The notes under the pieces were generated by a model. That model worked only from the letters and a program-made list of their open reading frames with translations. It did no database searches and was not told where the DNA came from. A program made the position numbers and the translations under genes. A stretch of 64,000 bases of DNA, taken from positions 4,443 to 68,442 of the forward strand of contig JAGXKI010000006.1 of assembly GCA_018335295.1 (NCBI GenBank), read 5' to 3'. The DNA comes from a bacterium (GTDB lineage Bacteria > Acidobacteriota > Aminicenantia > Aminicenantales > Aminicenantaceae). Below, in pieces: positions 23,139 to 54,518 of this stretch (position 1 is its first letter; each line of letters opens with the position of its first letter).

Positions 23139-24530
23139 TCATTCCGTTGCTGTGATTTCTTCAACTTCCTCCACTTCTTTGGGAATCGGTTTTCCTAAAA
23201 CCCGAGCCCCCTCATTGGTTACTAAAACATCATCTTCAATCCGAATCCCACCGAAATCTCTGTACTTCTCTACCTTTTGATAATCGATAAACTGAGTATT
23301 CTTTTTATCTTCCTTCCATTTATCGATTAATTTAGGAATAAAATAAACCCCCGGTTCAACAGTTAACACATATCCTGATTTGAGGGGCTTAGCGAAACGG
23401 AGAGCAGCCAGGCCAAACTGCTGGCTCTTTTTTACAGTTTCATCATAACCCACATATTTTTCTCCCAAATCTTCCATATCATGCACATCCAATCCCATCG
23501 GATGCCCCAACCCGTGGGGGAAAAACAGAGCATGAGCTCCCGCTTTGACAGCATCATCCACATTCCCTTTAATGAGCCCCAGTTCTTTTAACCCCGAGGC
23601 AATGGTATGGGCCGCTTTCAAATGGACATCTTTAAACTTAATTCCAGGCTTCATCAATTCTATAGCCGTTTTTTGGGCATTCAAAACTATCTTATAAACC
23701 TCTTTTTGCGGGGAGCTGAATTTCCCATCCACCGGACAAGTCCGGGTAATATCGGCCGCATAATGCATGGAGGATTCAGCTCCTGAATCATTGACCACCA
23801 TTCTTCCCTTCTGAAGAACATTCCCATGATAATGATTGTGAAGAATTTGACCGTTGATGGTCAGTATGGTGGGAAAAGCCGTCAAACATCCAGCGGAAAA
23901 AACCAGACCCTCCATCTGCCCTACGATTTCTCTTTCATACACTCCCGCTTTGGCCATCTTCATGGCTTGGGTGTGCATTTCATAAGTTAAAGAATGAGCC
24001 TTTTCTATCTCTTCAATTTCTTCTTTAGATTTAATAAGCCTTTGAGCGACCACTGCTTTGATGAGCTCTTCGGAAGCATAATCGGGAACTAGAGAAGAAG
24101 AAATTCCCAATAATTTTTCAATTTTCAAACAATTCTCCGGTCGGTACGGAGGCAGAAAATGGATCCTCCTTCCTTTCCGGATGGCCTGTCTCAGTATTTT
24201 TTCCAGTTTATCTAGAGGATATGTTTCTTTAACCCCCACCTGGCGTGCTCTATCCTTAAGGAGAGGCTGGTCGCCCATCCATACCACTTCCTCCACATCC
24301 ACATCATTTCCATAAAGAACACTGCGGTTTTCATCCACATCAATCAATCCAGCCAACCCGGGGGAATCAAGGCCAAAAAAATACAAAAAGGAACTGTCCT
24401 GGCGAAAAGGGTAAGTATTGCCCGGATAATTCATAGAACTTTCTTGATTTCCTAAAAATAAAATCAACCCAGATTTGATTTTCTCTCTGAGCTGTTCTCT
24501 TCTTTCCGTATAAATATTAGCCTTAAACAT
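23139..24530 (-). CDS. pepP: Xaa-Pro aminopeptidase (M24B)
   Basis: FRQDSSFLY, DSGAE...YAADITRT, HGLGHPMGLDVHD, TVEPGVY, GIRIEDD. Confidence 0.92.
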   Translation of the reverse strand: MFKANIYTERREQLREKIKSGLILFLGNQESSMNYPGNTYPFRQDSSFLYFFGLDSPGLAGLIDVDENRSVLYGNDVDVEEVVWMGDQPLLKDRARQVGVKETYPLDKLEKILRQAIRKGRRIHFLPPYRPENCLKIEKLLGISSSLVPDYASEELIKAVVAQRLIKSKEEIEEIEKAHSLTYEMHTQAMKMAKAGVYEREIVGQMEGLVFSAGCLTAFPTILTINGQILHNHYHGNVLQKGRMVVNDSGAESSMHYAADITRTCPVDGKFSSPQKEVYKIVLNAQKTAIELMKPGIKFKDVHLKAAHTIASGLKELGLIKGNVDDAVKAGAHALFFPHGLGHPMGLDVHDMEDLGEKYVGYDETVKKSQQFGLAALRFAKPLKSGYVLTVEPGVYFIPKLIDKWKEDKKNTQFIDYQKVEKYRDFGGIRIEDDVLVTNEGARVLGKPIPKEVEEVEEITATE

Positions 24531-24580: not shown

Positions 24581-25276
24581 TTAATGATTTTTTTCAGCAA
24601 TTTTCAAAGCTTTTTGGTAGTATCTCTTTAAAAACTTTTCCTGAACCTTATAGGACCAGTGAACATCCCGCATGAAATCAGCTGCTTCCTCTTTTTTTCC
24701 TTGCTCAACTAATTTTAATAACTTCTGATGTTCCTTAATGGATGCTTCTTCCCACTCTTTCACAAACCCTTCCTGGCGAGGAAAATCATACAATCTCTTT
24801 TTTAGATTATCCACAATCTTCACCAATTTTTTATTGGTACAAAGATCTAAAAACACATTATGGGCCTTAACATTGTACTTATAGTAAAGGTTAAAATTAT
24901 CATCTTTAATGGCTTCTTCCATTTTCTGCAAGTGTTTTCTCATTTTATCAATATCTGAGTCCTTTAACTTATCAAAAACGGAAAGGATAACCGTACTCTC
25001 CAGGGCCCCTATTATTTCATAGTAATCTTTAATTTCCTGAAGAGTGAGGTGTTTTACCTTTACCCCTCTCCGGGGTTGGATGGTGACAAAATCTTCCATT
25101 TCCAGACGAAGCAGTGCATCCCTTAAGGGAGTTTTACTGACCCCTAATTTTTGAGAAAGTTCATCCATATTAATCGAAGACCCGGGACGAATTTCACCTT
25201 TTTCCATTTGCTTTCTCAAATATTCATAAACTTGGTCTTTTAATGATTTCAGAGTGATGATGGGTTCTTTGGGCAT
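24581..25276 (-). CDS. GntR family regulator (FCD/FadR-type effector domain)
   Basis: wHTH LSQKLGVSKTPLRDALLRL...PRRG; FCD with conserved His (AHNVF, EHQK, VH). Confidence 0.9.
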   Translation of the reverse strand: MPKEPIITLKSLKDQVYEYLRKQMEKGEIRPGSSINMDELSQKLGVSKTPLRDALLRLEMEDFVTIQPRRGVKVKHLTLQEIKDYYEIIGALESTVILSVFDKLKDSDIDKMRKHLQKMEEAIKDDNFNLYYKYNVKAHNVFLDLCTNKKLVKIVDNLKKRLYDFPRQEGFVKEWEEASIKEHQKLLKLVEQGKKEEAADFMRDVHWSYKVQEKFLKRYYQKALKIAEKNH

Positions 25277-30842: not shown

Positions 30843-31000
30843 AGACAGACTGAACTTATCTCCTCCACTTTTCAGTCTTTTCTCTAAAAGTAGGATAAAA
30901 TGATCCATTTCTTTGAGTTAACGGATTCAAATATAAAACTTTTGTTGGAGCTATAATGAAACTTCTCTGGCTAAAGCCATGAGCATAAGGAGACAAAAAA

Positions 31001-32029
31001 TTATCGGAGTATGAATCCTTCATTGAGAGGGTCATCAGGGTCAAAGTAAAACTTATTCTCCCCTGTAATGTATGCGTTTCCAGATACTTCAGGAATCACA
31101 GCGGTGTATGGACCGAATCGGGTAATTTCCTTTATACATACTTCAAACTCGGTCCCGATTATACTTTCTATGACCACTGTTTCTCCTTTTTCAAGTTCTC
31201 CTCTTGAATAAAAGAGGGCTGCTCTGGCACTTACTCCGGTACCGGTGGGTGATCTGTCTACTTCTCCGTCAGCAAATATGCATACATTCCGACTGTGGTG
31301 GGAAGGATTTTCAGGGCCAGCTGTGATAATCGTGCCGTATAAAAAACCAAGCTCTTCCTCTTTAGGATGTTTTATTTCAATAGAATTTATCACAGCTCGT
31401 TTGATAGCCCGGCCCAGGTCAATCAACCGTTCATAATTTTTTGGATCCACAGACACATCCAATTCTTCAGCCCTGCAAAACGCGTAGAAAGCTCCTCCGA
31501 AGGCTATATCATAATGAACTCTGCCCAGACGGGGGACTGGAACTTGCTGGTCCTTTGTATAGACAAAAGAAGGAACATTTAAAAAAGAAACATGGGTTAC
31601 TTTCCGGTTCTTTCTGTAAGCAGAAGCTTTGACCCTGCCCGCAGGAGTATCCATTTTTATTTCGGGATTATTCTCTTCTTTTTTTATGATCCCTGTATCC
31701 AGAGTCATTTTGGCCAAAGCAATAATGGCATGACCGCACATAGTGCTGTAACCTTCATTATGCAGAAAAAACACCCCAAAGTCTCCATCTTCACTCACAG
31801 GTTCTGTCAGCACGGCTCCGTACATATCTACATGACCTCGGGGTTCCCACATCAACCCTTTACGTATGTGATCAAGATTGTCGCGGAAAAATCTTCTCTT
31901 TTCTAAAATTGTATCCCCGGGGATATCAGGCTGCCCTTTTGTTACAAGTCTTAAAGGTTCTCCTGCGGTATGCGCCTCCAACGTCTCAATCACTTTCCAG
32001 CCTGGGGGAGGTTTCCATTCAGAACTCAT
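31001..32029 (-). CDS. lhpH: Proline racemase family, Cys/Thr type: trans-3-hydroxy-L-proline dehydratase
   Basis: HTAGEP, WEPRGH.DMYG, STMCGH (Cys) and DRSPTGTG (Thr where racemases/epimerases have Cys). Confidence 0.85.
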   Translation of the reverse strand: MSSEWKPPPGWKVIETLEAHTAGEPLRLVTKGQPDIPGDTILEKRRFFRDNLDHIRKGLMWEPRGHVDMYGAVLTEPVSEDGDFGVFFLHNEGYSTMCGHAIIALAKMTLDTGIIKKEENNPEIKMDTPAGRVKASAYRKNRKVTHVSFLNVPSFVYTKDQQVPVPRLGRVHYDIAFGGAFYAFCRAEELDVSVDPKNYERLIDLGRAIKRAVINSIEIKHPKEEELGFLYGTIITAGPENPSHHSRNVCIFADGEVDRSPTGTGVSARAALFYSRGELEKGETVVIESIIGTEFEVCIKEITRFGPYTAVIPEVSGNAYITGENKFYFDPDDPLNEGFILR

Positions 32030-32043
32030 GTTTATTCCTTGTA

Positions 32044-33012
32044 TTAAAAACGGACTTCCCTTCCGATGCCTTTTTCCCTGGCATTTTTGTATATAAATTC
32101 TGAAACCACCAGGTCAAAAAGGGCCATCCCCACCGACTTAAAAACGGTGGTTTTTTCTCCTTTGAAATTTATGGCTAATTTCCTGGATATAATTTTTCCC
32201 ATTGTGATTATTTGATCCTTTCTAATCCAATCTTTTTCCACAGGAACTTTCAGGTCACCAGATTCAACAAAAGCGTGTTCTGTATCTACCACCATTCTTT
32301 TGATATTTTTAAACAATGCTTTTGGAAATTCTCTCATGTCAGGCTTATAAGACCCTATCCCCACGATATGTTTTCCCCAAAAAAGATTCTCATCATCAGA
32401 AAGCACAGGCTCTCTAGAGTTTGTAGCGGTTATAACGACATCAGATTTTGTTAACAACTCTTCAGAGCTGTTTTCTTTTTTAACTTTAATATTTTTAAGT
32501 GTATCCGTTAATTTTTCACCCAAACTCTCCGCTTTTTCAGAAAATTTATCATACACATAAATGGTCTTAAAATCTCTTTGAGTGCATGCTGAGATGGTTT
32601 GATTGAAACCCTGAACTCCAGCTCCCACAATCCCTAGGGTTTCGACCCTTTCTGAAGTCATATGACGTATGCTTACACTTCCCACAGCGGCTGTCCTCAA
32701 AGCAGTGAGCGCTGACCCATTAAGTAAAGCCAAAGGTTTCCCCGTTTCCCCGTCACTAAGGACCATAACACCAAAAAGCACAGGGATATGCTTTTTTGCA
32801 TTTTCAGGATATAAAGATACAACCTTTGTACCCATACTTTTTTCTGTGAAACAGGGCATCAACAAAAGGGTATTTCCTTTGTAATCAACATGCATACGCT
32901 CAGGCATATGAAAGCCTTTTTCTTCATATAAAAGCATGGATTTTTCCACAGAATCCACGATTTCATTCCGGGAAACAGCTCTCAGCATATCGTTTTGGCT
33001 TAATATAAGCAT
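32044..33012 (-). CDS. lhpI: Ornithine cyclodeaminase/mu-crystallin family; probable delta-1-pyrroline-2-carboxylate reductase
   Basis: LLMP, GTKVVS, LTALRTAAVG, GAGVQG, TVFKSVGMALFD; directly upstream of the Cys/Thr dehydratase. Confidence 0.78.
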   Translation of the reverse strand: MLILSQNDMLRAVSRNEIVDSVEKSMLLYEEKGFHMPERMHVDYKGNTLLLMPCFTEKSMGTKVVSLYPENAKKHIPVLFGVMVLSDGETGKPLALLNGSALTALRTAAVGSVSIRHMTSERVETLGIVGAGVQGFNQTISACTQRDFKTIYVYDKFSEKAESLGEKLTDTLKNIKVKKENSSEELLTKSDVVITATNSREPVLSDDENLFWGKHIVGIGSYKPDMREFPKALFKNIKRMVVDTEHAFVESGDLKVPVEKDWIRKDQIITMGKIISRKLAINFKGEKTTVFKSVGMALFDLVVSEFIYKNAREKGIGREVRF

Positions 33013-33090
33013 ATTACACGGACCCCTTCATAAAATAGGAATTGTCTTTCATCAGAATTGAGCCGCTTGGTGTATCGCTGAACTCCCATG

Positions 33091-34647
33091 TCAGGGAGTG
33101 AGTTCATCTGAACTCCCATATTGTTTCTGTAATTTTTCCAGTTCAGATTTAAGTTGAACCACTAAATCCTTATATTCAGGAAGAGGATAAAGGTTGAGAA
33201 GCTCTAAAGGGTCATTCTTTAAATCATAAAGTTCCCAGGCATCGATATCATAGTAATAGTGGATCAACTTATAACGGTGGGTTCGGATTCCATAGTGTCT
33301 TTTGACGCTGTGAACAGCTGGATATTCATAGTAGTGGTAGTATATAGAAGTACGCCAATCCGGAACCCTCTTTCCTTTGGACAAGGGACGAAGGCTTCTT
33401 CCCTGAATGTCTTCAGGTAAAGAAATACCGGCATAATCCAGGAATGTCGGAGCAAAATCAATGTTGAGAACCATATTCTTATTCACCGAACCCGGCTTTA
33501 TCTCTCGGGGGTATCTCATCAGAAGAGGCAATCTTAAAGATTCTTCATACATCCATCTTTTATCAAACCAACCGTGATCGCCCAGAAAAAAACCCTGATC
33601 GGAAGAATAGATGACTACTGTATTTTCCCTCAATCCGCTGGAGTCCAGATAATCCATTATTTTTCCCACACTCTCATCCACCGAAGCCACACATCGAAGA
33701 TAATCTTTGATGTATCTCTGGTATTTCCATCTTATCCGTTCTTCTCCTTTCAAGGAGGCTTCTCTAAAAGCCCTGTTTTTAGGTTCATAGGCGGCATCCC
33801 ATGCTCGCCTCTGTTCCTCACTCATCCTCCTATACTCTCTATTCCAGTTAGGACTTGCCCCTGGAGGCTTAAGCTTTAAATCCCATTTATCTCGGAGATG
33901 GCGGGCTATGGTCATTTCCTGCTCCCGGGCGGCCGGAGACCGGGTGGCATAACTATCAAACAGTGTTTCCGGCTCAGGGATGGCTTGGCCCTCATACTTA
34001 TGGAGATGTTTAGGTCCGGGCATCCAGTTTCGGTGGGGAGCCTTATGGTGACACATTAAACAAAAAGGCTTTTTTTTATCCCGATTTTTCAACCAATCCA
34101 GGGTTAAATCCGTGATAATTTCGGTAACATAACCGGAGTGTCGTCTCTTTTTTCCCATCTCTACAAAATCTGGATTATAGTAAGCCCCTTGTCCAGGAAG
34201 AATGTTCCAGTAATCAAACCCGGTAGGAGTGCTTTTTAAGTGCCATTTCCCCACCAGAGCTGTCTGATAGCCATTTTTCCGAAGAGTTTTGGGAAATGTT
34301 CTCTGACTTCCATCAAAGGTGTCTTTATTATCCACCACCCCGTTTAAATGACCGTACTTTCCCGTAAGAACTCCGGCCCGACTCGGAGCACAAATAGAAT
34401 TGGTACAAAAACAATTATCAAAACGGACCCCTTCTCGGGCAACCCGGTCAAGATGAGGGGTTCGGTTTATTTTACTCCCATAACAACTTAAAGCATGAGC
34501 GGCATGGTCATCGGTAAAAATAAACAGAAAGTTGGGCCTTTTTCCCTCTCCGGCACAGGATTTTATCCCCCATGAAGCCGTCAAGGCTACGGTTCCAAAA
34601 CCTATATTCTTTAGAAAATCCCTCCTGTTGTAATGATTCTCCTTCAT
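33091..34647 (-). CDS. Cys-type formylglycine sulfatase, Tat-exported (N-acetylglucosamine-6-sulfatase-like)
   Basis: NRRDFLK twin-arginine signal; FTDDH; [12 protein letters not shown] (CxPxR); GKWHL; HKAPH; [16 protein letters not shown]. Confidence 0.9.
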
Positions 34648-34776
34648 TTTCTTTTCCCTTTATTTCCCATTATAGGTTTTTGGATTTCAATCACATCCCA
34701 AAGAGAAATCCCCAAACAACTGCTGTTCCCGGATTTCTCCTTAGACCCTCGGTATTAATTTTTATTCACATTCTTT

Positions 34777-36237
34777 TCACTTTTTTTCTTTAAAGGTCTT
34801 TCTGTTTATGAATTTGTTAAGAAGAATAAACACGATCAAAGCTGTAATCCATTGAAAGAGAACCGTTCCCAGCGAGGAGGGAGATATTATTTTATACCAA
34901 TGATGAGGGTCTTGAGAGTAGCTGTTCCAGAACCACCATCCCAGCATGGCTATAATTTGAACAGGAAGCAGGTATTTAACCAAAATATCAAAGGCTTTCC
35001 CCAACCGGTATTTACCATAGGAGGCAAATATTTTCTGCCGGAAAACTTCCGGCCTTATTTTAATCAACAGGACTATAAAAAAGGACCCGCTGACCATTAA
35101 ACCTAATCCCCAAACCCAGTCCTGGTTATTGAAAAATCCCATGCTCAGGGCCGAAGGAAGGCCTAAAACAAAGCAAGTCACTCCTACAATTTTCACCGCT
35201 TTCTTTCTCAAAAAGCCCGCATCCATAAACACTCGGGTTATGAGTTCCAGTTGGGAAAGAAGGGAGGAAAAGGCAGCAAAACAGAGCCCCAGAAAAAAGA
35301 GAGCCAAGAAAAAAGTCCCCGATGGAATTTTGGAAAAAAGTTCAGGTATCCAGATAAAAGTCAGTCCCACATTATCTGTCTCCATAACCTTCAAAGATTT
35401 CTCCAGAGAACCCGGTTGACTGGAAAAAAAAGCAAAAACAGTGGGGATCACAGTAACTGCAGCCAGAAGAGAAGCTAAATAATCCCCAAAACCCAAAGTG
35501 GTCGCCGTTAAAACGGAGTTTTCTTTTTTATGGGCATACACAGCATAGGTTAGCATCAATCCCCACCCTGCTCCAGTGGACCAAGCACACTGGCTGAGCG
35601 CATTCATCCACACCTCGGGATCTGCCAGCATGTGAAATTTAGGTGAAAAGATATAATCAAGCCCTTTCAAAGCCCCGGGTAAAGTCAGAGCCCGGATGCA
35701 AGCTACGACTAAAATTATAAAAAGAGTGGGAATAAATATTCTATTCGCTCTCTCTATTCCTTTGGTCACTCCAAAATAAATAATAAAGCACCCTATCCCT
35801 ATAGCAAACAGCTGGAATAAAACAGGCTGCCAAGAGGAGGAGAAATGGCGCCAGAATTGAAGGGGGTGTTTATGGGTCAAACCTTGAAAGACCGTAGCAA
35901 AAAAATATTTCAAGCACCAGCCTACAACCACAGTATAATAAAAAGTAATCGCAGCCGTAACAAAGGCAACAAACGTCCCCATCCAACTGTACTTTTGACC
36001 CATCAATTTCCCAAAAGAACCTATAACTCCCTTTCGAGAGTTTTTACCGATTGAAAGCTCAATGACAAGAAGGGGGATAGCCCAGATAAAGAGAAAAAGG
36101 AGCCAAGCAATTAAAAACGCTCCTCCCCCATATTGGGCCACTATTCGGGGAAAACGCCATAAGTTTCCTGTCCCTACAGCCATTCCCAAACCAGCCAGGA
36201 TTATTCCCCAACGAGAAAAGGTTTCTTTCTTCTCCAT
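34777..36237 (-). CDS. Sodium-dependent transporter, NSS/SNF family (amino acid/imino acid candidate)
   Basis: FSRWG...GMAVGTGNLWRFP, GGGAFL, WSTGAGWG; multiple TM helices. Confidence 0.9.
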   Translation of the reverse strand: MEKKETFSRWGIILAGLGMAVGTGNLWRFPRIVAQYGGGAFLIAWLLFLFIWAIPLLVIELSIGKNSRKGVIGSFGKLMGQKYSWMGTFVAFVTAAITFYYTVVVGWCLKYFFATVFQGLTHKHPLQFWRHFSSSWQPVLFQLFAIGIGCFIIYFGVTKGIERANRIFIPTLFIILVVACIRALTLPGALKGLDYIFSPKFHMLADPEVWMNALSQCAWSTGAGWGLMLTYAVYAHKKENSVLTATTLGFGDYLASLLAAVTVIPTVFAFFSSQPGSLEKSLKVMETDNVGLTFIWIPELFSKIPSGTFFLALFFLGLCFAAFSSLLSQLELITRVFMDAGFLRKKAVKIVGVTCFVLGLPSALSMGFFNNQDWVWGLGLMVSGSFFIVLLIKIRPEVFRQKIFASYGKYRLGKAFDILVKYLLPVQIIAMLGWWFWNSYSQDPHHWYKIISPSSLGTVLFQWITALIVFILLNKFINRKTFKEKK

Positions 36238-36564
36238 TTTTTATTCCTTTACTTAGAAATTATTGAATTCTTGACCTTTCTTTTTCCTTTGCCTAAAGAC
36301 CATTCAGCATCTCCTGCTAAATACTTACTAATTTTACCTCCTATTCTCTTCTGAGTTTTTAATATTTTCTGTTCTTATATATGAATTTATAAAACATTAA
36401 ATATCAAATTATTTTCGAGTTCAAGAAATTTTTTTGTTTATTTCTATATTTATAGGTTGATACTTGTCATTTTTTTTCTTTTGATATATTTTATTTCAGA
36501 CTGGATAATCTAAAACCAGACTTGAAATTCCAGTGAGAAAATTCCTCCGTATAAGGAGGGGAGC

Positions 36565-37728
36565 ATGAAAAAATTGAGGGCGTATTTCACACTTCTTTTG
36601 ATAACCCTTCTAATTGGAGTCTTTATGTTTTGTAAAAAAGATTCCAAATCCAAACAAGACTTAACTCAAAGGAATAGAAAAACCCAAATGGATATTCAAA
36701 AACAGACTTTTGGAAAACTTCCGGACGGAAGAGAAATTATTCTCTACACTCTGGTCAACGGGGAGGGAATGGAAGCTCAAATCATGACTTATGGAGCGAC
36801 CCTGGTTTCATTAAAAGTCCCGGATTCCCAAGGAAACCTGGAAGATATAACCTTAGGCCACTATTCTCTGCAAGGGTACCTTGAAGCCTCTCCCTATTTT
36901 GGTGCGACCGTAGGACGCTACGCCAACCGGATTGCCCATGGAAAATTCACCTTGGATGGTGTGAAATATCAGCTTCCCACCAACGAAAGGGAGCATCACT
37001 TACACGGAGGGACTAAAGGATTTGACAAAAGAGTCTGGCAGGCTAAGGCTGTCCACAAACAAAAGGCAGTGGGAGTTGAATTTCAATACTTGAGTCCAGA
37101 CGGGGAACAAGGATATCCGGGAAATCTTTCCTGCACCGTAACCTATTTTCTGACTAAGGACAATCAAATAAAAATAAAATACCAGGCTGAAACAGACAAA
37201 TCCACCCCCCTAAACTTAACCCATCACAGTTATTTTAACCTGGATGGACAAGGAAAAGGAGATATCCTGGACCACATTTTGATGATAAACGCTCATAAAT
37301 ACACGCCCGTCAATGAAGACCTGATTCCCACTGGGGAAATACGTTCTGTGAAAGAGACTCCTTTGGATTTCACATCTCCTCGTAAAATAGGTTCCCGCAT
37401 TGATAAAGTGGAAGGCGGATATGACCATAATTATGTCCTGGATAAAAGCGAGAATAATTTGGTTTTAGCTGCCAGAGTGGAAGGACCTGATAGCGGCCGA
37501 GTTATGGAACTCTACACCACAGAACCTGGAATCCAGTTTTACTCTGGAAATTTTCTGGAAGGGACTATAGAAGGAAAAAATAGTGAAATTTATCACCAGC
37601 ATTATGGCTTCTGCTTGGAACCCCAGCATTTCCCGGATTCTCCCCACCATCCTGACTTTCCTTCAACCATTTTAAGACCAGGTGAAAAATACCACAGCTT
37701 TAGTGTGTATAAATTTTATACTCAATAA
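36565..37728 (+). CDS. galM: Aldose 1-epimerase (galactose mutarotase) with N-terminal export/lipoprotein-like signal
   Basis: GATVGRYANRIA, HHLHGG, NLTHHSYFNL, GYDHNY, GFCLEPQHFPDSP; SD AAGGAGG. Confidence 0.92.
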   Translation: MKKLRAYFTLLLITLLIGVFMFCKKDSKSKQDLTQRNRKTQMDIQKQTFGKLPDGREIILYTLVNGEGMEAQIMTYGATLVSLKVPDSQGNLEDITLGHYSLQGYLEASPYFGATVGRYANRIAHGKFTLDGVKYQLPTNEREHHLHGGTKGFDKRVWQAKAVHKQKAVGVEFQYLSPDGEQGYPGNLSCTVTYFLTKDNQIKIKYQAETDKSTPLNLTHHSYFNLDGQGKGDILDHILMINAHKYTPVNEDLIPTGEIRSVKETPLDFTSPRKIGSRIDKVEGGYDHNYVLDKSENNLVLAARVEGPDSGRVMELYTTEPGIQFYSGNFLEGTIEGKNSEIYHQHYGFCLEPQHFPDSPHHPDFPSTILRPGEKYHSFSVYKFYTQ

Positions 37729-37787: not shown

Positions 37788-40151
37788 TCAAAAAGCTTCG
37801 TGCTCGGTCCTTTTTATAATCTCATTCTGGAGCTTTTCACTGAGGTCCACAAAATAATCACTGTACCCGGCGACCCGGACAATTAAATCTCTGTACTTTT
37901 GAGGATATTTTTGAGCTTCTCTCAACATATCTGCACTGACTACATTCAGCTGAATATGATGTCCATCCATTGCAAAATAGGATCTGATTAAATGAGCCAT
38001 CTTTTCTATTCCTTCCTCATCCTGTAAGAGACTGGGAGTAAATTTCTGATTTAAAAGAGTCCCTCCCGTGCGTAAATGATCCATCTTGGCTACGGATTTT
38101 AAAACAGCGGTAGGACCGTTCCTGTCGGCTCCCTGAACAGGAGATATTCCTTCAGAGAGAGGTTCTCCGGCTAACCTTCCGTCCGGAGTGGCCCCCACGA
38201 CTTTACCAAAATAAATATGGACTGTAGTGGGTAAAAGATTTATCCGATAACATCCCCCTTTGGTATTAGGGCGGCCGTTTATAGTGTGGTAATAAGTGTT
38301 GAAGAGTTTCTTCATCAGGTTATCCGCATAATCATCGTCATTTCCGTACTTAGGAGTCTTATTGAGCAGTCTCTGTTGAAGTGCCTGTTTCCCTCCAAAA
38401 TTTACCTTTAAGGCCTGCAGAAGCTCTTTCATATTCACTTGTTTTTTCTCATAGACATTGTATTTCAAAGAAACCAAAATGTCGGTCATGGTTCCTGTTC
38501 CTACTCCCATTATGTAGGAAGTATTGTACCGAGCTCCTCCATCATGATAATCCTTTCCTTTAGCGATACAATCATTTATAAGAAGTGAAAGATAAGGTGC
38601 AGGGAGATAGTGAGCATAAAGACGTTCGATGATGTTATTCCCTTTTATTTTTATATCTATAAAATGATTGAGCTGCTTTTTAAAGGCGTTATACAATTGG
38701 TCAAAAGAAGAAAACTCTTGAGGATCTCCTGTAGATAAACCAATTTTTTTCCCTGTTCGAGGGTCTATCCCTTTATTCAGGGTGATTTCCATAACCTTGG
38801 TCAAATTGAAGTAACCGGTTAAATTATAATTTTCTTTCCCGAAAGCCCCTGTCTCCACACAGCCGCTGCATCCTCCATTCCGAGCGTCCTCGATGGATTT
38901 TCCCTGTTTTATCAATTCCTGGACGATCGAGTCTGTGTTGAAAATGGAAGGCTGTCCAAATCCCGTTTTTATAATTTTGAGGGCTCTTTTAAGGAAACTC
39001 AGGGGGGTTTTTTTACTTATTTGCACCATAGAAGAAGGTTGAACTATCCTCATTTCCTCAACAACATCCAAAATAAGATAAGAGAGCTCGTTCACTCCAT
39101 CGGCACCATCTTCTTTAACGCCTCCTGTATTGATCAAAGCAAAATCTGTGTAAGTGGCGCTTTCCTCTGCAGTCACTCCGACTTTGGGTGGTGCCGGTTG
39201 GTTGTTAAATTTCACCCAAAAAGCCTGTAAAAATTCTCTGGCTTTCTCTTTGGTAAGGGTTTTTTCTTCGAGTCCTTTTTTATAAAAAGGGAAAAGGTGC
39301 TGGTCCAGCCTTCCTGGATTGAAAGAATCCCACGTATTATATTCAATCACCACACCCAAATGGACGAACCAGTAGGACTGGAGAGCTTCCCAGAAATCCC
39401 TGGGTGGATGGGCGGGTACCCGGGAACAAATTTGAGCCATTTTTTGAAGCTCTTTTTTCCTTTTTGGAGATTCCTCTTTCTCTGCAAGTTCTTTGAGTTT
39501 CATGCTGTGGCGTTGGGCATACATGATGAGGGCATCCGCACAGATCTCCATGGCTTTCAGCTCTTCTTTTTTATGGTAAGCTTCCGGATCGTTGTAGAAA
39601 TCAAGGTTATTCATACTTTCTTTTATTTCTCTTTTGAAATTCCGAAACCCTTTTTTATAAATTTTATCATCCAAAACAGTATGTCCCGGGGCTCTCTGTT
39701 CCTGAAATTCAGTGAACACCCCCGCTTCAAAAGTGTCTTTCCATTCAGGGGAAATAACCTTGAAAATTCTGTTTCTAATGGACCTATTTTTCCAGTAAGG
39801 AATTATTTCTTCTCTGTATAGCTTTTTGACTTCTTCACTTACTGCAAAGGGAATTTTTTCTCTGTTGTTTAATATCTCCAAATCTTTCAAACCATGAGTA
39901 CATATCTCGGGATAAGTGGGGGTAGCTTTGGGAGCTGGCCCCCTTTCCCCTACAATGAGTTCTCCCTCATTGATGCATATTTCTTTATTTTCTAGTAAAT
40001 ATTTAAAAGCTAAAGCCCTCCTCACTGGTGCTGATACTGTATCCGCCTCTTTACTTTTATAAAATTGGGTTATCAGTTTGGCTCTTTCTGGTGTAATATA
40101 AGGTTTTGCCTCTAAACTCTGTTTTCTTAACTTTTTAATTCTTTCTTTCAC
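37788..40151 (-). CDS. hypD: Glycyl radical enzyme, trans-4-hydroxy-L-proline dehydratase
   Basis: TEFQEQRAPGH, WDSFNPGRLDQ, FNNQPAPPKVG..EESATYTDFA, SGCVETG (Cys-x-Glu), LTGY, LPTT, RVAGYS (Gly loop); 787 aa; matches the recalled C. difficile HypD motifs. Confidence 0.88.
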   Translation of the reverse strand: MKERIKKLRKQSLEAKPYITPERAKLITQFYKSKEADTVSAPVRRALAFKYLLENKEICINEGELIVGERGPAPKATPTYPEICTHGLKDLEILNNREKIPFAVSEEVKKLYREEIIPYWKNRSIRNRIFKVISPEWKDTFEAGVFTEFQEQRAPGHTVLDDKIYKKGFRNFKREIKESMNNLDFYNDPEAYHKKEELKAMEICADALIMYAQRHSMKLKELAEKEESPKRKKELQKMAQICSRVPAHPPRDFWEALQSYWFVHLGVVIEYNTWDSFNPGRLDQHLFPFYKKGLEEKTLTKEKAREFLQAFWVKFNNQPAPPKVGVTAEESATYTDFALINTGGVKEDGADGVNELSYLILDVVEEMRIVQPSSMVQISKKTPLSFLKRALKIIKTGFGQPSIFNTDSIVQELIKQGKSIEDARNGGCSGCVETGAFGKENYNLTGYFNLTKVMEITLNKGIDPRTGKKIGLSTGDPQEFSSFDQLYNAFKKQLNHFIDIKIKGNNIIERLYAHYLPAPYLSLLINDCIAKGKDYHDGGARYNTSYIMGVGTGTMTDILVSLKYNVYEKKQVNMKELLQALKVNFGGKQALQQRLLNKTPKYGNDDDYADNLMKKLFNTYYHTINGRPNTKGGCYRINLLPTTVHIYFGKVVGATPDGRLAGEPLSEGISPVQGADRNGPTAVLKSVAKMDHLRTGGTLLNQKFTPSLLQDEEGIEKMAHLIRSYFAMDGHHIQLNVVSADMLREAQKYPQKYRDLIVRVAGYSDYFVDLSEKLQNEIIKRTEHEAF

Positions 40152-40153
40152 TC

Positions 40154-41107
40154 TTATCCTCCTATTTTTACAGAAAAACCGTGATCTTCCAGAGTTTTTT
40201 TTATCTCTTCAGATTTCTTCTCGGAAGGAGGATGAAAATCACCCTGGGGGGTTTTCTTTTTCAACCTTTTGTATTTTTCAACCCACCCTCTATGGTAGGG
40301 TAGCAGATCTATCTGATTAAGGTTTAATGACCAAAGAAATTGAGCTAAATCTACAATATTTTTCTCATTATCATTAACACCCGAAATAATAGGCATTCTC
40401 ACTACCACAGGCCTTTCTTTTTTGGAGAGAGTTTTGAGGTTATCCAGTATTTGACTATTATCCACTCCGGTGTATTGTTTATGTTTTTTCTTATCCATCA
40501 CTTTAATATCATAAAGGAAAAGATCTATTTTGGTATATAATTTTTCTAAGATTTCCGGAGAGACAAAGCCAGAGGTATCCACGGCTGTATGAATTTTTCT
40601 TTCATTAAGGGCATCCAGAAGGGCTTCGAGAAATTCAGGCTGCATAAAGGGTTCCCCACCCGAAATAGTGGCTCCTCCTCCCGATTGATCGTAAAACACC
40701 TTATCTTTTTCTATTTCCTTTATCACTTCCTCTACGGTTGTCCCCTTTCCTATAATTTCCAAGGCTTCATAAACGCATACATCCACACATTTTCCGCATA
40801 AATCGCATCGGCTCCAGTCAATTTTTATCTTTTTACCCTCTTGGGAAATAGCCTGGAGAGGACATACCGGAATACAGGCCCAACATGTCTTTCCACATCT
40901 TTCGGCTCTGTACATAATTTGAGGTTCCTTCTCCATTCCTTCTGGATTCTGGCACCAAGAACAACCTAAAGGACATCCTTTGAAAAACACAGTAGTGCGG
41001 ATGCCTGGACCATCATGAACAGCGTAACGTTTTATATCGAATATACGGCCCTTCCCTTGATTCCCGGTTTCATTTAAACTTTTTTGGATAGAAAACCTTT
41101 TACTCAT
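40154..41107 (-). CDS. Glycyl-radical enzyme activating enzyme (radical SAM with ferredoxin insertion), cognate to HypD
   Basis: HDGPGIRTTVFFKGCPLGCSWCQNPE; CxxxCxxCxxxCP and CxxCxxCxxxC insert; SGGEP; 2 nt upstream of hypD. Confidence 0.92.
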   Translation of the reverse strand: MSKRFSIQKSLNETGNQGKGRIFDIKRYAVHDGPGIRTTVFFKGCPLGCSWCQNPEGMEKEPQIMYRAERCGKTCWACIPVCPLQAISQEGKKIKIDWSRCDLCGKCVDVCVYEALEIIGKGTTVEEVIKEIEKDKVFYDQSGGGATISGGEPFMQPEFLEALLDALNERKIHTAVDTSGFVSPEILEKLYTKIDLFLYDIKVMDKKKHKQYTGVDNSQILDNLKTLSKKERPVVVRMPIISGVNDNEKNIVDLAQFLWSLNLNQIDLLPYHRGWVEKYKRLKKKTPQGDFHPPSEKKSEEIKKTLEDHGFSVKIGG

Positions 41108-41124
41108 CCAAATCTATCCTTTTC

Positions 41125-41141
41125 TGATATATAATATATCA
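41125..41141. promoter_or_regulatory. Perfect 17-bp palindrome, candidate repressor operator
   Basis: TGATATAT-A-ATATATCA, covering the predicted -10 of the activase-hypD operon. Confidence 0.6.
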
Positions 41142-41161
41142 CAGAATAATAGAGCTATCAA
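41133..41161 (-). promoter_or_regulatory. Candidate sigma-70 promoter of the activase-hypD operon
   Basis: TTGATA-N17-TATATT on the minus strand, 25 nt before ATG 41107. Confidence 0.6.
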
Positions 41162-41367: not shown

Positions 41368-43656
41368 ATGAACCTCCAAAAAAATTGTTTATTCCTCCTC
41401 ATTCCCCTGATTCTCTGGGGATCCTGTAAAGCCCCACAAAAAAGAGAAATAACCAAAAAAGATTATAAAAGGGCCGAAAGTTTTCTCCCCCGCAACCTGG
41501 AGAAAAAAGCGTACAACCTGAAAGTATCCCCTCACTGGATAATGGAAAGCTCTTCTTTTTGGTATAAAGTCAATACCAAAGAAGGAAAAAAATTCTGGAA
41601 AGTTGACCCTGAAGAAAAAGTAAAAAAACCCGCTTTCGATCACAAGAAATTAGCCAAAGCTCTATCCAGAAAAACCGGAGAAACTTATACTTATAAAGAC
41701 CTGCCTTTTGACACGATTGAGTTTGTAGAAAAATATAAGATTAAATTCAAAGTCGATGACCAAACTTGGATTGCTGATTTGAAAGATTATACCCTGAAAC
41801 AAAAAGAAAAGAAGAAAGAAAAAGAGGAAAAGCTCTCTCCTGATGGGAAATGGGTAGCCTTTTCCAAAGATTACAACCTTTTTATCCGCTCTAAAAAAAC
41901 AGGACAAGAAATTCAATTAACCACCAAAGGTCAAAAACTCTACGAGTACGCCAGCTCTTTGAAATGGGGAGATTTGATTGAAGGAGAAAATGGCAAAATT
42001 CCCTCCCGTTTCATGATTAAATGGTCTCCTGACTCCAAAAAAATTTATACTCATATACTGGATTTAAGAGAAGCTAAGAAGCTTTATTTACTCAAATCTG
42101 CAGATAAAGAAGGTTATAGGGCTAAACTTTTCTCCTACTATCGTGCTCTTCCTGGAGAAAAAAATTCAGGTCGTCTCATTCCGGTGATTATTAATGTGGA
42201 AACTCAAAAAGAGGTAAAAATTGACCTGGAACCTATCCCCCGCTTCTTGGGTTTAGATATCCATTGGTTTAAAAACAGCCGGAAGCTTCATGCTCGAAAA
42301 TATGACCGAGGTTACAAAGCTGTAAACTTACTAGAAATAAATGCTCAAACCGGAGAAGTAAAAAACGCAATAAAAGACGAAAACAAGACCTATGTAGAAA
42401 ACTCTCTCTGTGAGTACAAATTTTTAGAGGAGTCAGGAAAAACTTTCCTCACTTCAGAACGGGATGGATGGAATCATATCTATTTGTATGACTGGAATAA
42501 AGGTGAACTCATTCGTCAAATTACCGAAGGGAAATTTGTGGTTCTAGATATTGTTTACGCAGACAAAGAAAAAGAGAATATTTTCTTTACAGCGGTAGGA
42601 AGGGAAAAAAATCGTGATCCCTATTTAGTCCATCTTTACAGGGTAGGTTTTGATGGATCCGACCTAAAACTACTCACTCCTGAACATGCTTACCATGAGA
42701 TGAACTCCTCTCCAAATCATAAATATTTTGTGGATAACTATTCCCGTGTAGACTCTCCTCCTCAATCTGTACTCCGAAAACTGGAAGATGGCTCCATTCA
42801 TATGAAGTTAGAAGAAGCTGATGTCAAGGATGTAATGGCCCTAGGTTGGGACTCTCCCGAACCGTTTAAAGTCAAAGCCGCTGATGGCAAGACTGATATT
42901 TATGGGCTGATATGGAAGCCTTCTAACTTTGACCCTACGAAAAAATACCCAGTTATTGATCAAACCTATACCGGACCTCAAGCCGTAAATACTCCTAAAA
43001 CTTTTACTCGAGCTTTATTTCACTCCAATACCTCTTTAGTAGAGTTGGGGTTTATCGCTATAACTGTAGATGGCCGAGGCACGGCCCACCGCTCCAAAGA
43101 ATTCCATAATTTTTCTTACCACAACCTGGGAGGAGGATGCACAGACCATATTACCGCCATTAAAAAATTATCAAAGGAACATGATTACATGGATACAGAG
43201 AGGGTAGGAATTTACGGCCACTCTGCAGGCGGGTATGATGCAGCTCATGCTCTCCTTAAGTGGCCAGATTTTTATAAAGTGGGAGTTTCTTCCTCTGGAA
43301 ATCACCATCACAGGATGGCCAAAGCCTGGTGGCCTGAGATGTACATGGGATATCCTGTAGAAAAATACTACAAAGAACAGTCTAACATTAATATGGCAAA
43401 AAACCTTAAAGGAAATCTGCTGTTAGTCCATGGTGATATGGATGAAAATGTGAATCCAGCTTCTACCATAAGACTGGCTCATGCTCTGATCAAGAATAAG
43501 AAAGACTTTGACCTTTTAATCCTTCCCAACAATCATCACGGCTATAAAGGAGTGTTTAAAGATTATTTTATAAGAAAAAGATGGGACTATTTTGTAGAAC
43601 ATCTCCACTCCATTCAACCCCCTTCTTACACTTTAACTACTCCTAAAAAGGAATAG
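41368..43656 (+). CDS. S9B dipeptidyl-peptidase IV family lipoprotein
   Basis: Lipobox-like WGSC; WSPDS; YTGPQ; GHSAGG nucleophile; GDMDENV; NNHHG. Confidence 0.9.
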   Translation: MNLQKNCLFLLIPLILWGSCKAPQKREITKKDYKRAESFLPRNLEKKAYNLKVSPHWIMESSSFWYKVNTKEGKKFWKVDPEEKVKKPAFDHKKLAKALSRKTGETYTYKDLPFDTIEFVEKYKIKFKVDDQTWIADLKDYTLKQKEKKKEKEEKLSPDGKWVAFSKDYNLFIRSKKTGQEIQLTTKGQKLYEYASSLKWGDLIEGENGKIPSRFMIKWSPDSKKIYTHILDLREAKKLYLLKSADKEGYRAKLFSYYRALPGEKNSGRLIPVIINVETQKEVKIDLEPIPRFLGLDIHWFKNSRKLHARKYDRGYKAVNLLEINAQTGEVKNAIKDENKTYVENSLCEYKFLEESGKTFLTSERDGWNHIYLYDWNKGELIRQITEGKFVVLDIVYADKEKENIFFTAVGREKNRDPYLVHLYRVGFDGSDLKLLTPEHAYHEMNSSPNHKYFVDNYSRVDSPPQSVLRKLEDGSIHMKLEEADVKDVMALGWDSPEPFKVKAADGKTDIYGLIWKPSNFDPTKKYPVIDQTYTGPQAVNTPKTFTRALFHSNTSLVELGFIAITVDGRGTAHRSKEFHNFSYHNLGGGCTDHITAIKKLSKEHDYMDTERVGIYGHSAGGYDAAHALLKWPDFYKVGVSSSGNHHHRMAKAWWPEMYMGYPVEKYYKEQSNINMAKNLKGNLLLVHGDMDENVNPASTIRLAHALIKNKKDFDLLILPNNHHGYKGVFKDYFIRKRWDYFVEHLHSIQPPSYTLTTPKKE

Positions 43657-46245: not shown

Positions 46246-46258
46246 TATTATCTCCTTT

Positions 46259-47440: not shown

Positions 47441-47751
47441 TTGGAACTCCTTTCAGCAAGCTTTATTTCCTCTTTAACCATGACAATAGCCTTTTCTTTC
47501 GGGGGGCATACTTCTGAACACATTCCACATCCCGTGCAGTAATCATATTTGATTCCTTTTACCTCCTCACCTTGGACTTCGATGGCGTGATGAGGACAAT
47601 AAAGCCAGCAAAAAAAACATTGAATGCACTTATCTTCAATAAACTGGGGTTTTTTCCCGGATCTCCATGTTCCAGTTAAATTCTGGACTGAATTCCCGGC
47701 ATTTAAATTGATAGTCCCCAGGGTTAATTCTTTCCATGTTTCCTTCTTCAT
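47437..47751 (-). CDS. porD: 2-oxoacid:ferredoxin oxidoreductase delta subunit (2x[4Fe-4S])
   Basis: TGTWRS, CIQCFFCWLYCP, YDYCTGCGMCSEVCP. Confidence 0.92.
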   Translation of the reverse strand: MKKETWKELTLGTINLNAGNSVQNLTGTWRSGKKPQFIEDKCIQCFFCWLYCPHHAIEVQGEEVKGIKYDYCTGCGMCSEVCPPKEKAIVMVKEEIKLAERSSK

Positions 47752-53312: not shown

Positions 53313-54518
53313 TCACTCAAACTTCTTGAATACTTTTCTAATTTTTTTCAAAGCCCAACTGAGGTCTTTCTGTTTCACCACTAAGGGAGGGGCAAACCGA
53401 ATGACATTTTCATGAGTCTCTTTACACAGGAGTCCTTCCTCTTTCAGGGCTTCACAAAAGGGTCGGGCTCCTCCTGCTTCTGGCTTCAACTCTATTCCAA
53501 TGAGCAAACCTTTTCCCCGGGTTTCTTTAATGTGTCGACTTTGAATTTTTTTGAGCTCATGGAGGAAATACTCTCCTTGTTCCGCGCAATTATCCACTAA
53601 ATTTTCTTCCTGGATCACCCGAATGGATTCCCGGGCCACCGCACAGGCTAAGGGGTTTCCTCCGAAAGTGGAACCATGACTTCCAGGGGTAAACAGTCCC
53701 AGGACTTCTCTCATCGAAAGGACCGCCGAAACCGGATAGCATCCTCCCCCTAGAGACTTACCCAGTATCTGAACATCGGGTTTGACATTTTCATAATCAC
53801 AGGCCATCAGTTTTCCGGTTCTTCCCAGGCCTGTCTGAATCTCATCAGCCATGAAGAGGATGTTCTTTTTTTCACATATCTCTTTGGCTCTCTTCAAATA
53901 ACCCTCCGGAGGCACAATGATACCTGCTTCAGCCTGGATTGGTTCAAAAAGAAAAGCGGCGGTATTCGGGTTGATGGCATTTTCCAAAGCCCCTAGATCC
54001 CCGTACGGAATCACTGTAAACCCAGGTGTATGAGGTCCAAAATCTTTTTTATAGGAGGGGTCCGTGGAAAAACTGATAATGGTGACGGTTCGTCCATGAA
54101 AATTATTCGAACACACAATAATTTCAGCCTTATCCAAGGGGATTTCCTTTTTTTTATATCCCCACATCCGGGCGGCTTTCAACGCGGTTTCCACGGCTTC
54201 AGCCCCCGAATTCATGGGAAGGACCATCTCATATCCGGTCAAATCACACAGTTCTTTAGCCAGCCGCGGCCATTGATCGTTTCGGAATGCTCGAGAGGTC
54301 AGTGTCAATTGTTTCGCCTGACTGATTATAGTTTTCACAATGCGGGGATGGGAATGGCCTTGATTCACAGCGGAATAAGAACTTAAAAAATCAAGGTATT
54401 TATTTCCTTCCACATCCCAAACCCAAATTCCCTTTCCTTTGGTGAGAACCACATCTAAAGGATGATAATTCCGAGCTCCGTATAAGTCTTCTAGGTCCAC
54501 AAAAAATTTTGTATCCAT
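53313..54518 (-). CDS. rocD: Ornithine--oxo-acid aminotransferase
   Basis: True start ATG 54518 (SD AAGGAG): YGARNYHPL, SSYSAVNQGH, PMNSGAEAVETA, FHGRT, EPIQAEAG, DEIQTGLGRTG, LGKSLGGG, HGSTFGGNP. Confidence 0.93.
   Translation of the reverse strand: MDTKFFVDLEDLYGARNYHPLDVVLTKGKGIWVWDVEGNKYLDFLSSYSAVNQGHSHPRIVKTIISQAKQLTLTSRAFRNDQWPRLAKELCDLTGYEMVLPMNSGAEAVETALKAARMWGYKKKEIPLDKAEIIVCSNNFHGRTVTIISFSTDPSYKKDFGPHTPGFTVIPYGDLGALENAINPNTAAFLFEPIQAEAGIIVPPEGYLKRAKEICEKKNILFMADEIQTGLGRTGKLMACDYENVKPDVQILGKSLGGGCYPVSAVLSMREVLGLFTPGSHGSTFGGNPLACAVARESIRVIQEENLVDNCAEQGEYFLHELKKIQSRHIKETRGKGLLIGIELKPEAGGARPFCEALKEEGLLCKETHENVIRFAPPLVVKQKDLSWALKKIRKVFKKFE

Follow-up and report, generated by a model that had tools for sequence, protein, structure and literature searches.

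A predicted HypD dehydratase-activase operon with a conserved candidate operator in an uncultured salt-lake bacterium of the Aminicenantes type

[quoted passage not shown] 2020, PMC7077986; PMC6219649). In the clostridial Hyp-to-Pro Stickland cluster hypD and the activase gene are accompanied by proC and prd genes, whereas hypD loci that have no neighbouring proC are the majority class, and in these loci it is for unlinked enzymes to process Delta1-pyrroline-5-carboxylate (P5C; Huang et al. 2018, PMC6219649). Control of Hyp use has been documented for aerobic catabolism in S. meliloti and Proteobacteria (PMC5343134) and in Streptomyces coelicolor (PMC6608401), where GntR-type HypR repressors govern regulons that include PepP-type Xaa-Pro peptidases, peptide permeases, and OCD-family genes. 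For trans-3-hydroxy-L-proline (3-Hyp), the Thermococcus litoralis dehydratase (6R76/6R77), with its Cys/Thr catalytic pair, and the Delta1-pyrroline-2-carboxylate (Pyr2C) reductase (6T3E) provide the reference structures.

We analyzed a 64-kb stretch of DNA (the window) from an uncultured Aminicenantes-type bacterium represented in salt and hypersaline lake metagenomes. A literature search combining Aminicenantes with hydroxyproline returned nothing specific, and one genome of the group, Aminicenantes-PK28, has been reported to carry a P5C reductase gene (PMC4897734). The window was compared with 80 related hypD loci, mostly from Ca. Aminicenantes. HypD is common in the group: at least 80 loci, some of them in Asgard archaeal MAGs, encode it at 67-77% identity, and the nearest relatives are approximately 77% identical to the window protein. 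Two closed Aminicenantes chromosomes, OY970261.1 and OY969586.1, also have a hypD gene. The hypD locus and its borders comprise the following features:

36565..37728, plus strand: aldose-1-epimerase, convergent with hypD and forming the 3' limit of the operon (NF008277, 371 bits against a cutoff of 240; Pfam Aldose_epim)
37788..40151, minus strand: hypD, predicted trans-4-hydroxy-L-proline dehydratase (glycyl radical enzyme), 787 aa, GTG start
40154..41107, minus strand: predicted HypD-activating enzyme, a radical-SAM GRE activase, first gene of the operon, 317 aa
41108..41367, no strand: AT-rich divergent promoter region of 260 nt, read from the sequence, common to the operon and the S9/DPP-IV gene
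41122..41144, no strand: operator-like palindrome TGATATAT-A-ATATATCA, a perfect 8-1-8 inverted repeat
41368..43656, plus strand: S9/DPP-IV-type prolyl peptidase, divergent from the operon (PF00930 DPPIV_N, PF00326 Peptidase_S9)

The assignment of the dehydratase was assessed by profile searches and by alignment with the C. difficile enzyme (CdHypD). The protein scored 1337 bits against the equivalog model NF043068 for trans-4-hydroxy-L-proline dehydratase (cutoff 1100) and fell far below the respective cutoffs of all other equivalogs, while Pfam placed it in PF02901 (769 bits) and PF01228 (131 bits), the PFL-like barrel and the C-terminal glycyl-radical domain. Its top PDB match was CdHypD (6vxc/6vxe, 1097 bits), followed by glycerol dehydratase (572 bits), HpyG (493 bits), HpzG (481 bits), and HplG (446 bits). 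The alignment with CdHypD covers 782 positions at 58% identity with a single one-residue gap, and the numbering is that of CdHypD minus 3. The eleven determinants that the initial annotation had listed all align in register, namely F149, H157, D275, S331, D336, F337, C431, E433, Y447, T642, and G762, and three further residues named for CdHypD in PMC7077986 (W277, R156, and K326) have counterparts in W274, R153, and K323. The glycine loop reads RVAGYS, with G762 corresponding to the RVxG glycine G765 of CdHypD, and the cysteine loop reads GCVETG, in which C431 and E433 form the CXE motif of GRE eliminases (C434-V-E436 in CdHypD) as defined in PMC7077986. The HypD-specific set D275, D336, H157, S331, F337, Y447, T642, and F149 (D278, D339, H160, S334, F340, Y450, T645, and F152 in CdHypD) is likewise in place; the roles of these residues were established by mutagenesis, and D278 and D339 are strictly conserved in HypD only (PMC7077986). 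Thus, the two enzymes share both loops, every Hyp-binding and catalytic residue, and the predicted chemistry.

The gene upstream of hypD encodes a protein with Pfam Radical_SAM and Fer4 domains that scored 368 bits against the GRE activase model TIGR02494 (cutoff 174); its best-scoring model was the HypD-activase equivalog NF043069, at 394 bits against a cutoff of 425. It carries the radical-SAM motif CPLGCSWC (CX3CX2C) and two Cys-rich ferredoxin-like motifs, CGKTCWACIPVC and CDLCGKCVDVC. Only 2 nt separate the activase from hypD, and an AGGAGG sequence lies 7 nt ahead of the hypD GTG start, within the last codons of the activase. Because it is adjacent and translationally coupled to hypD, we consider the activase probably cognate to this HypD, and from the sequence comparisons we concluded that 37788-40151 and 40154-41107 very probably encode a genuine anaerobic HypD with its activating enzyme. 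A radical-SAM activase is also next to hypD in C. difficile; the gene order here is activase then hypD, no proC lies alongside, no prd genes occur in the window, and the host is a salt-lake bacterium rather than a gut Clostridium.

The activase and hypD genes form one translationally coupled transcription unit between a divergent and a convergent gene. No intrinsic terminator was found after hypD in the 59-nt gap that precedes the convergent aldose-1-epimerase, a GalM homologue of which lies close to hypD in 18 related loci. Upstream of the activase, the divergent region contains a sigma-70-like promoter on the minus strand (TTGATA-17-TATATT with an extended TG, 41161-41133). The initial annotation had described the pair as a bare two-gene operon: the two open reading frames lie exactly where it placed them and the operon does consist of two genes only, but "bare" does not hold, given that the operon carries a conserved candidate operator and has a candidate regulator and Pro/Hyp-peptide genes nearby.

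The palindrome at 41122-41144 overlaps the -10 box and lies 18 nt 5' of the activase ATG. It scored 25.1 bits with a position weight matrix derived solely from sites in 18 other loci, the window's own site being left out. Operator-like sites of this TGATAT-repeat type were found at the 5' end of activase-hypD or GntR-activase-hypD operons in 32 of 81 loci, and 39 sites were counted in 1.31 Mb against 1.0 expected from composition-preserving shuffles. Among the 34 sites with a measurable distance to hypD, 27 lie just 5' of the activase, or of the GntR gene where this leads the operon; the motif stands 10-50 nt 5' of an operon-leading GntR gene in 7 loci and 5' of the activase in approximately 20. 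For FadR-subfamily GntR proteins a TKGT/ACMA core has been reported, from which the TGATAT motif differs. The window also contains three weaker operator-like sites (29448, 36479, and 41277; 12-14 bits), each within the promoter region of a relevant operon; the resulting total of 4 sites against 0.9 expected, however, falls within the range of local-composition shuffles (maximum 4), so that these three sites are a hint only and no proof of a regulon.

A candidate regulator is encoded 16 kb from the hypD operon and adjoins a peptidase gene:

24581..25276, minus strand: GntR/FCD-family regulator, candidate repressor of the hypD operon, HypR-like in role (PF00392 GntR, PF07729 FCD)
23139..24530, minus strand: PepP, Xaa-Pro aminopeptidase, immediately downstream of the GntR gene (Pfam AMP_N, Peptidase_M24)

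The window GntR protein appears orthologous, at 52-67% identity, to the products of GntR genes that directly precede activase-hypD in 11 related loci. Orthologues of PepP (54-68% identity) also occur near hypD in 11 related loci, in most of them directly downstream of hypD. On the basis of this co-location and comparative genomics, the hypD operon is probably repressed by the 24581-25276 regulator acting through the TGATAT palindrome over the -10 box. In the published HypR regulons, too, an autoregulated GntR/FCD regulator is found at the Hyp-utilization locus together with Xaa-Pro peptidases, peptide permeases, and OCD-family genes; in contrast to those regulons, the target here would be an anaerobic radical dehydratase rather than an epimerase/oxidase/deaminase route, and the operator sequence differs. 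The window and 32 of 81 related loci are set apart from the majority-class hypD loci by a definable conserved TGATAT candidate operator and linked GntR/FCD regulator, neither of which was found described in the literature examined.

The operon would be one module of a wider neighbourhood for utilization of Pro/Hyp peptides. This neighbourhood includes two DPP-IV-type peptidases, PepP, an M16 pair, an M3 dipeptidase, POT and SNF transporters, and, 5 kb from the hypD operon, a gene pair predicted to convert 3-Hyp to L-proline:

31001..32029, minus strand: trans-3-hydroxy-L-proline dehydratase, proline-racemase superfamily, Cys/Thr type (PDB matches and motifs)
32044..33012, minus strand: Delta1-pyrroline-2-carboxylate reductase, OCD/mu-crystallin family, product L-proline (Pfam OCD_Mu_crystall)

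The dehydratase carries the motifs MCGH and DRSPTGTG; its best NCBIfam model, NF045511, scored 401 bits, below the cutoff of 540, and its best PDB match was 6r76 (472 bits), with the t3Hyp dehydratase 7qpo at 298 bits. For the reductase the best PDB match was 6t3e (171 bits). Both members of the pair are therefore closest to the T. litoralis enzymes, and the dehydratase shares the Cys/Thr catalytic pair; here, in contrast, the genes are bacterial and share an operon with those for an SNF transporter and a sulfatase, close to hypD.

The initial annotation had pointed to the absence of a P5C reductase gene. A tblastn search of the window with E. coli ProC as the query gave no match even at E<=50, although the same query recovered the human, plant, and Neisseria P5C reductases at 1e-34 to 1e-49. 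Since ProC is highly conserved, we take the null results here and in the 80 related loci as true absence. Two PutA domains used as tblastn queries found no PutA or aldehyde-dehydrogenase-type (P5C dehydrogenase) homologue in the window, and family annotation found no Prd-like (proline reductase) open reading frame. In all 80 related loci, tblastn detected neither ProC nor PutA within 10 kb of hypD, a range in which P5C dehydrogenase and proline reductase genes are also missing, and the adjacent proC of the clostridial Stickland cluster is therefore missing in the window and throughout this set. The observation is real but ordinary, as the lack of a P5C reductase gene beside hypD is the published norm (PMC6219649), and the significance at first attached to it is not borne out.

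By analogy with C. difficile, the activase would place a glycyl radical on G762, and the radical would move to C431, which would take a hydrogen from C5 of trans-4-hydroxy-L-proline; the 4-OH would then be lost as water, aided by D275, H157, and E433, to give P5C. The operon holds no dedicated P5C-consuming enzyme, and the product would join the general P5C/glutamate-semialdehyde pool to be handled by unlinked enzymes. The likeliest fate, to which we give about even odds, would be reduction by a housekeeping ProC to L-proline, in which the 3-Hyp module also ends and which would be useful as an osmolyte under salt-lake conditions; oxidation by a P5C dehydrogenase to glutamate would come second, at appreciably lower odds. 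Taken as a whole, the data are best explained by a C. difficile-type HypD system encoded in one operon, probably subject to GntR/TGATAT repression, set in a Pro/Hyp-peptide neighbourhood, and passing P5C to unlinked enzymes; we put the probability of this reading at roughly 0.78.

The alternative that survives best gives the glutamate route the leading part: an unlinked P5C dehydrogenase would oxidize P5C to glutamate for fermentation, and P5C rather than proline would be the hub for 4-Hyp, for ornithine via RocD, and for proline derived from 3-Hyp via proline dehydrogenase. Such a route has been proposed for HypD genomes that lack proC, and a dehydrogenase gene lies near hypD in Oscillibacter (Huang et al. 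2018, PMC6219649). In the window, peptide-catabolic genes dominate, and a four-subunit 2-oxoacid:ferredoxin oxidoreductase (OFOR, 45307-48326) is encoded 4 kb from hypD, a position next to hypD that is kept in the closest relatives. However, no aldehyde-dehydrogenase or PutA-type homologue was seen in the window or the 80 loci, and the 3-Hyp module ends in proline, so the scheme needs a proline dehydrogenase, which was not seen either; we regard it as possible but rather unlikely.

More doubtful still is a broader proposal that Aminicenantes and neighbouring uncultured anaerobes possess an undescribed "anaerobic HypR" regulon, in which a GntR/FCD repressor on TGATAT operators would coordinate HypD with the 3-Hyp module and with peptidases specific for Pro/Hyp, joined in many relatives by a divergent sugar porter and by L-arabinose genes, with P5C handled without ProC via glutamate or a RocD-linked route. 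If true, such a pattern would implicate hydroxyproline-rich glycoproteins, and not collagen alone, as the substrate.

The first reading of the locus had also suggested that, without ProC, RocD could transaminate the HypD-derived P5C/glutamate semialdehyde to ornithine; Hyp carbon would then leave as ornithine or arginine and not as proline. The gene concerned is unlinked to the operon:

53313..54518, minus strand: rocD, ornithine aminotransferase, in its 401-aa form with the likely true start; the full open reading frame is 53313-54632, 439 aa (TIGR01885, 559 bits against a cutoff of 378)

The shorter form is consistent with the TIGR01885 match, which begins at residue 41-44 of the 439-aa frame, and with a Logan contig on which rocD is called as 401 aa. 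The gene is thus a genuine ornithine aminotransferase gene, as had been claimed, and its presence in the same window, the reversible chemistry of the reaction, and the lack of ProC and P5C dehydrogenase genes in the window are all compatible with the proposal. However, rocD lies 12 kb from hypD in a separate transcription unit, where its neighbours are rluD and a DUF6600 gene, with no operator-like site found upstream, and a rocD homologue occurs within 10 kb of hypD in none of the 80 related loci. The equilibrium of ornithine aminotransferase favours P5C formation, and RocD would therefore more plausibly feed than drain the P5C pool. We consider the ornithine route very unlikely.

The OCD/mu-crystallin-family enzyme was also considered as a stand-in for ProC, either by direct reduction of P5C or as an ornithine cyclodeaminase after RocD (P5C to ornithine to proline). 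In 7 related loci OCD-family genes occur no more than 10 kb from hypD, and four Ca. Saccharicenans-type loci with such a gene have no proline-racemase-family gene nearby; these genes do not form one orthologous group with that of the window, as their products are only 22-33% identical to the window protein. The family acts at C2 imines. The window protein matches a Pyr2C reductase of solved structure best (171 bits), whereas a true ornithine cyclodeaminase (1x7d) scores only 56 bits, and its gene adjoins that of the Cys/Thr 3-Hyp dehydratase, the classical partner of Pyr2C reductase, which makes either substitute role highly improbable. Equally remote is the idea that the dehydratase is one of the newer Hyp-related GREs, the C-N lyase HplG or the N-methyl-Hyp dehydratases HpyG/HpzG (reviewed in PMC13450708), which are homologous to HypD and appear among its PDB matches, at 446-493 bits against 1097 bits for HypD, whereas the protein exceeds the NF043068 cutoff and keeps every HypD-specific substrate-binding residue.

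The preferred reading, a C. difficile-type HypD system under candidate GntR control, places an enzyme well characterized from the gut microbiome in a salt-lake bacterium whose group is uncultured and poorly known. The missing proC, being already the published norm, answers no open question by itself. The conserved candidate operator and the linked GntR regulator offer a simple and testable handle on the control of anaerobic Hyp use, and also on which further genes belong to the Hyp pathway.

The protein at the centre of the locus was assigned from family models, solved structures and active-site residues. The genes concerned, including that of the HypD-activating enzyme (AE, a radical-SAM activase), are as follows:

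41368-43656, divergent from activase-hypD: S9/DPP-IV peptidase
41107-40154, minus strand: HypD activase (AE), 317 aa
40151-37788, minus strand: HypD, trans-4-hydroxy-L-proline dehydratase, 787 aa, GTG start
36565-37728, convergent with hypD across a 59-nt gap: aldose-1-epimerase

The 787-aa protein is a glycyl radical enzyme (GRE) with PFL-like and Gly_radical domains. It passed the trans-4-hydroxy-L-proline dehydratase equivalog NF043068 (1337 bits vs a cutoff of 1100) and fell far under the respective cutoffs of the other GRE equivalogs (choline lyase, sulfopropanediol dehydratase, PFL and others). Among solved structures, Clostridioides difficile HypD (CdHypD; 6vxc/6vxe) was the top match (1097 bits), followed by glycerol dehydratase (572 bits); the newer hydroxyproline-related GREs HpyG (8id1), HpzG (8iof) and HplG (7vua) (named in PMC13450708) gave 493, 481 and 446 bits. 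The alignment with CdHypD was co-linear over 782 positions with 58% identity and one single-residue gap (query numbering = Cd - 3). All 11 HypD determinants listed in the initial annotation were found, as F149, H157, D275, S331, D336, F337, C431, E433, Y447, T642 and G762, and W274, R153 and K323 were read at the positions of Cd W277, R156 and K326, which are substrate contacts or charge partners (Backman et al., 2020; PMC7077986). The residue comparison is meaningful because mutagenesis demonstrated that H160, D278, D339, E436, S334 and F340 are essential in CdHypD, of which D278 and D339 are HypD-specific (PMC7077986). The family model, the identity to CdHypD and the retention of all named residues uphold the assignment as HypD.

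The upstream gene encodes a GRE activase (TIGR02494, 368 bits vs a cutoff of 174) with a CX3CX2C radical-SAM motif and two ferredoxin-like Cys motifs; among specific models NF043069 (HypD activase) fitted best, although its 394 bits fall a little short of the cutoff of 425. The two ORFs are tightly packed on the minus strand: just 2 nt separate the stop of the activase from the GTG of hypD, and the hypD Shine-Dalgarno sequence AGGAGG lies within the final activase codons. A 260-nt AT-rich region 5' of the activase is shared with the divergent S9/DPP-IV peptidase gene. Given this spacing, the embedded Shine-Dalgarno sequence and the directions of the flanking genes, the description as a two-gene operon is accurate.

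We compared the window with 80 related hypD loci (67-77% protein identity, ~10-kb flanks; numbered L003 and so on), found by scanning GTDB species representatives. The majority carry the label Ca. Aminicenantes; the rest are from Calditrichota, Phycisphaerae, Anaerolineae, Synergistetes and several archaeal MAGs, Asgard among them. In nearly all loci the activase gene precedes hypD. HypD is 69-71% identical in MAGs labelled Heimdallarchaeota/Promethearchaeota, Nanoarchaeota or Bathyarchaeia (L020, L049, L051, L059, L060, L061, L067, L068, L074 and L081), which suggests either that the AE-hypD pair has spread widely between sediment anaerobes by horizontal transfer or that these MAGs are mis-binned. 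The window sequence itself exactly matches a Logan contig of run SRR14023877 and is present in metagenomes from salt lakes, hypersaline lakes and brine.

A perfect 8-1-8 palindrome, TGATATAT-A-ATATATCA, lies at 41125-41141, 18 nt ahead of the activase ATG, and overlaps the -10 box of the best sigma-70-like promoter. Its half-site forms TGATAT-N1-3-TGATAT or TGATAT-N3-5-ATATCA occurred 39 times in 32 loci (81 sequences), compared with 1.0 expected from shuffles preserving local composition, and 27 of the 34 sites with a measurable distance to hypD lie just 5' of the activase, or of GntR where GntR leads the operon. The window's own site scored 25.1 bits with a matrix built without it. Three weaker matches were found, a number within chance: one at 29448, in the promoter region of the DPP-IV/GntR/PepP unit, one at 36479, in that of the SNF/sulfatase/3-Hyp unit, and one at 41277, within the AE/S9 region itself.

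The GntR/FCD gene of the window (24581-25276) is 52-67% identical to the operon-leading GntR genes of related loci. In the closest relatives (L003, L004, L005, L014) the order is GntR > AE > HypD > PepP > M16 < M16 <, whereas in the window the PepP, GntR and M16 genes lie 13-17 kb from hypD. This synteny break (23139-37728 compared) holds a block of ~13 kb with galM, the SNF transporter, the sulfatase, the 3-Hyp pair, anSME, DPP-IV and the serine-dehydratase-like gene. A rearrangement or insertion appears to have split the predicted regulator from its candidate operator. The candidate regulatory logic is familiar, since GntR-family HypR repressors are on record that regulate their own genes as well as those of aerobic Hyp catabolism, Xaa-Pro peptidases and the OCD family (PMC5343134, PMC6608401); however, the operator sequence in the window and its relatives differs. 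The operon is therefore "bare" in having two genes only, but not in its setting, with a conserved putative operator and with a related GntR/FCD gene and Pro/Hyp genes in the window.

Some other genes of the neighbourhood recur near hypD elsewhere. Sugar genes adjoin hypD in many Aminicenantes loci (L011, L016, L029, L036, L037, L047, L056, L057, L062 and others): aldose-1-epimerase in 18 loci, a Zn-dehydrogenase in 13, a FucI-like isomerase in 10 and an XylE-like MFS sugar porter in 7, along with ribulokinase (NF003154, 628 bits vs a cutoff of 428). Several loci carry a putative TGATAT operator between divergent sugar porter and activase genes; the window's own sugar gene near hypD is the aldose-1-epimerase gene. 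The sugar genes hint at joint use of Hyp and arabinose from hydroxyproline-rich glycoproteins. An anaerobic-sulfatase-maturase-type radical SAM/SPASM gene (29706-30842; TIGR03942, 427 bits vs a cutoff of 349) recurs immediately next to the hypD activase gene in four related loci (L011 7717-8841; L028 7807-8916; L054 1837-2955; L075 421-1533), with 60-64% identity, and tblastn detected no homologue of the window's sulfatase within 10 kb of hypD in any related locus. Between the DPP-IV gene and the GntR-PepP pair lies a gene for a fused beta-alpha "L-serine dehydratase-like" Fe-S protein (25401-26966, minus strand, 521 aa); it scored under the cutoffs of both serine dehydratase subunit models (220 vs 243 and 124 vs 161).

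The absence of proC from the window was borne out. A tblastn search with E. coli ProC was empty even at E<=50, and the search is sensitive, since with this query the P5C (Delta1-pyrroline-5-carboxylate) reductases of human, plants, Coxiella, Streptococcus and Neisseria come up at 1e-34 to 1e-49. Neither the proline dehydrogenase domain nor the P5C dehydrogenase domain of PutA had a match in the window, and none of the sizeable ORFs in the 64 kb, all annotated by family, is a ProC, P5CDH, PutA or Prd protein. The arrangement had been taken as unusual, but neither ProC nor PutA homologues were found in any of the 80 loci (1.3 Mb of flanks). In agreement with Huang et al. (2018; PMC6219649), hypD without adjacent proC is not unusual.

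Two further genes belong to a 3-Hyp module, and the best matches of both are solved T. litoralis-type structures:

31001-32029: Cys/Thr proline-racemase-family protein (trans-3-Hyp dehydratase), MCGH and DRSPTGTG motifs, best structure match 6r76 (472 bits)
32044-33012: OCD-family Pyr2C (Delta1-pyrroline-2-carboxylate) reductase, best structure match 6t3e (171 bits, vs only 56 bits for true ornithine cyclodeaminase)

Their genes appear to share one operon with those of a sodium symporter of the SNF family and an SGSH_C-domain sulfatase (33091-36237, minus strand), which is an unusual combination of imino-acid with sulfated-glycan functions. Ca. Saccharicenans-type loci (L034, L042, L050, L080) have the conserved order AE > HypD > MscS-type mechanosensitive channel > OCD-family gene > S46 dipeptidyl peptidase; they have no proline-racemase-family gene within 10 kb, and the OCD-family proteins of these loci share just 22-29% identity with that of the window.

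We prefer the reading that P5C would enter a general pool, from which an unlinked housekeeping ProC would reduce it; proline, the predicted end product of the 3-Hyp module, would then be the point where both Hyp isomers converge. A P5C reductase gene is reported in one Aminicenantes genome (PMC4897734). Alternatively, an unlinked P5C dehydrogenase may oxidise P5C; Huang et al. proposed that P5C may instead go to glutamate and other amino acids (PMC6219649). The proposed conversion to ornithine by RocD fares worse. The rocD gene is indeed present (53313-54632, minus strand; TIGR01885, 559 bits vs a cutoff of 378), with a start probably that of the 401-aa form called on the public contig: the longest ORF (GTG start, 439 aa) seems over-extended, family models matching from residue 41-44. 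However, rocD stands in a separate unit 12 kb away, no operator-like site was found upstream of it, and its homologues occur in none of the 80 related neighbourhoods. The ornithine aminotransferase equilibrium, moreover, lies toward P5C formation. The 3-Hyp module, which would end in L-proline, makes the OCD-family protein an unlikely ProC substitute or cyclodeaminase of a RocD/OCD bypass.

The observation of HypD with its activase and no local proC is thus confirmed; its interpretation is supported in part, as regards which enzyme is encoded and the lack of proC nearby, whereas the unusualness and the rocD route are not supported. Both the enzyme family and the type of genomic arrangement are already known. 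The new, modest detail is a conserved candidate operator together with a displaced GntR gene, the predicted regulator.
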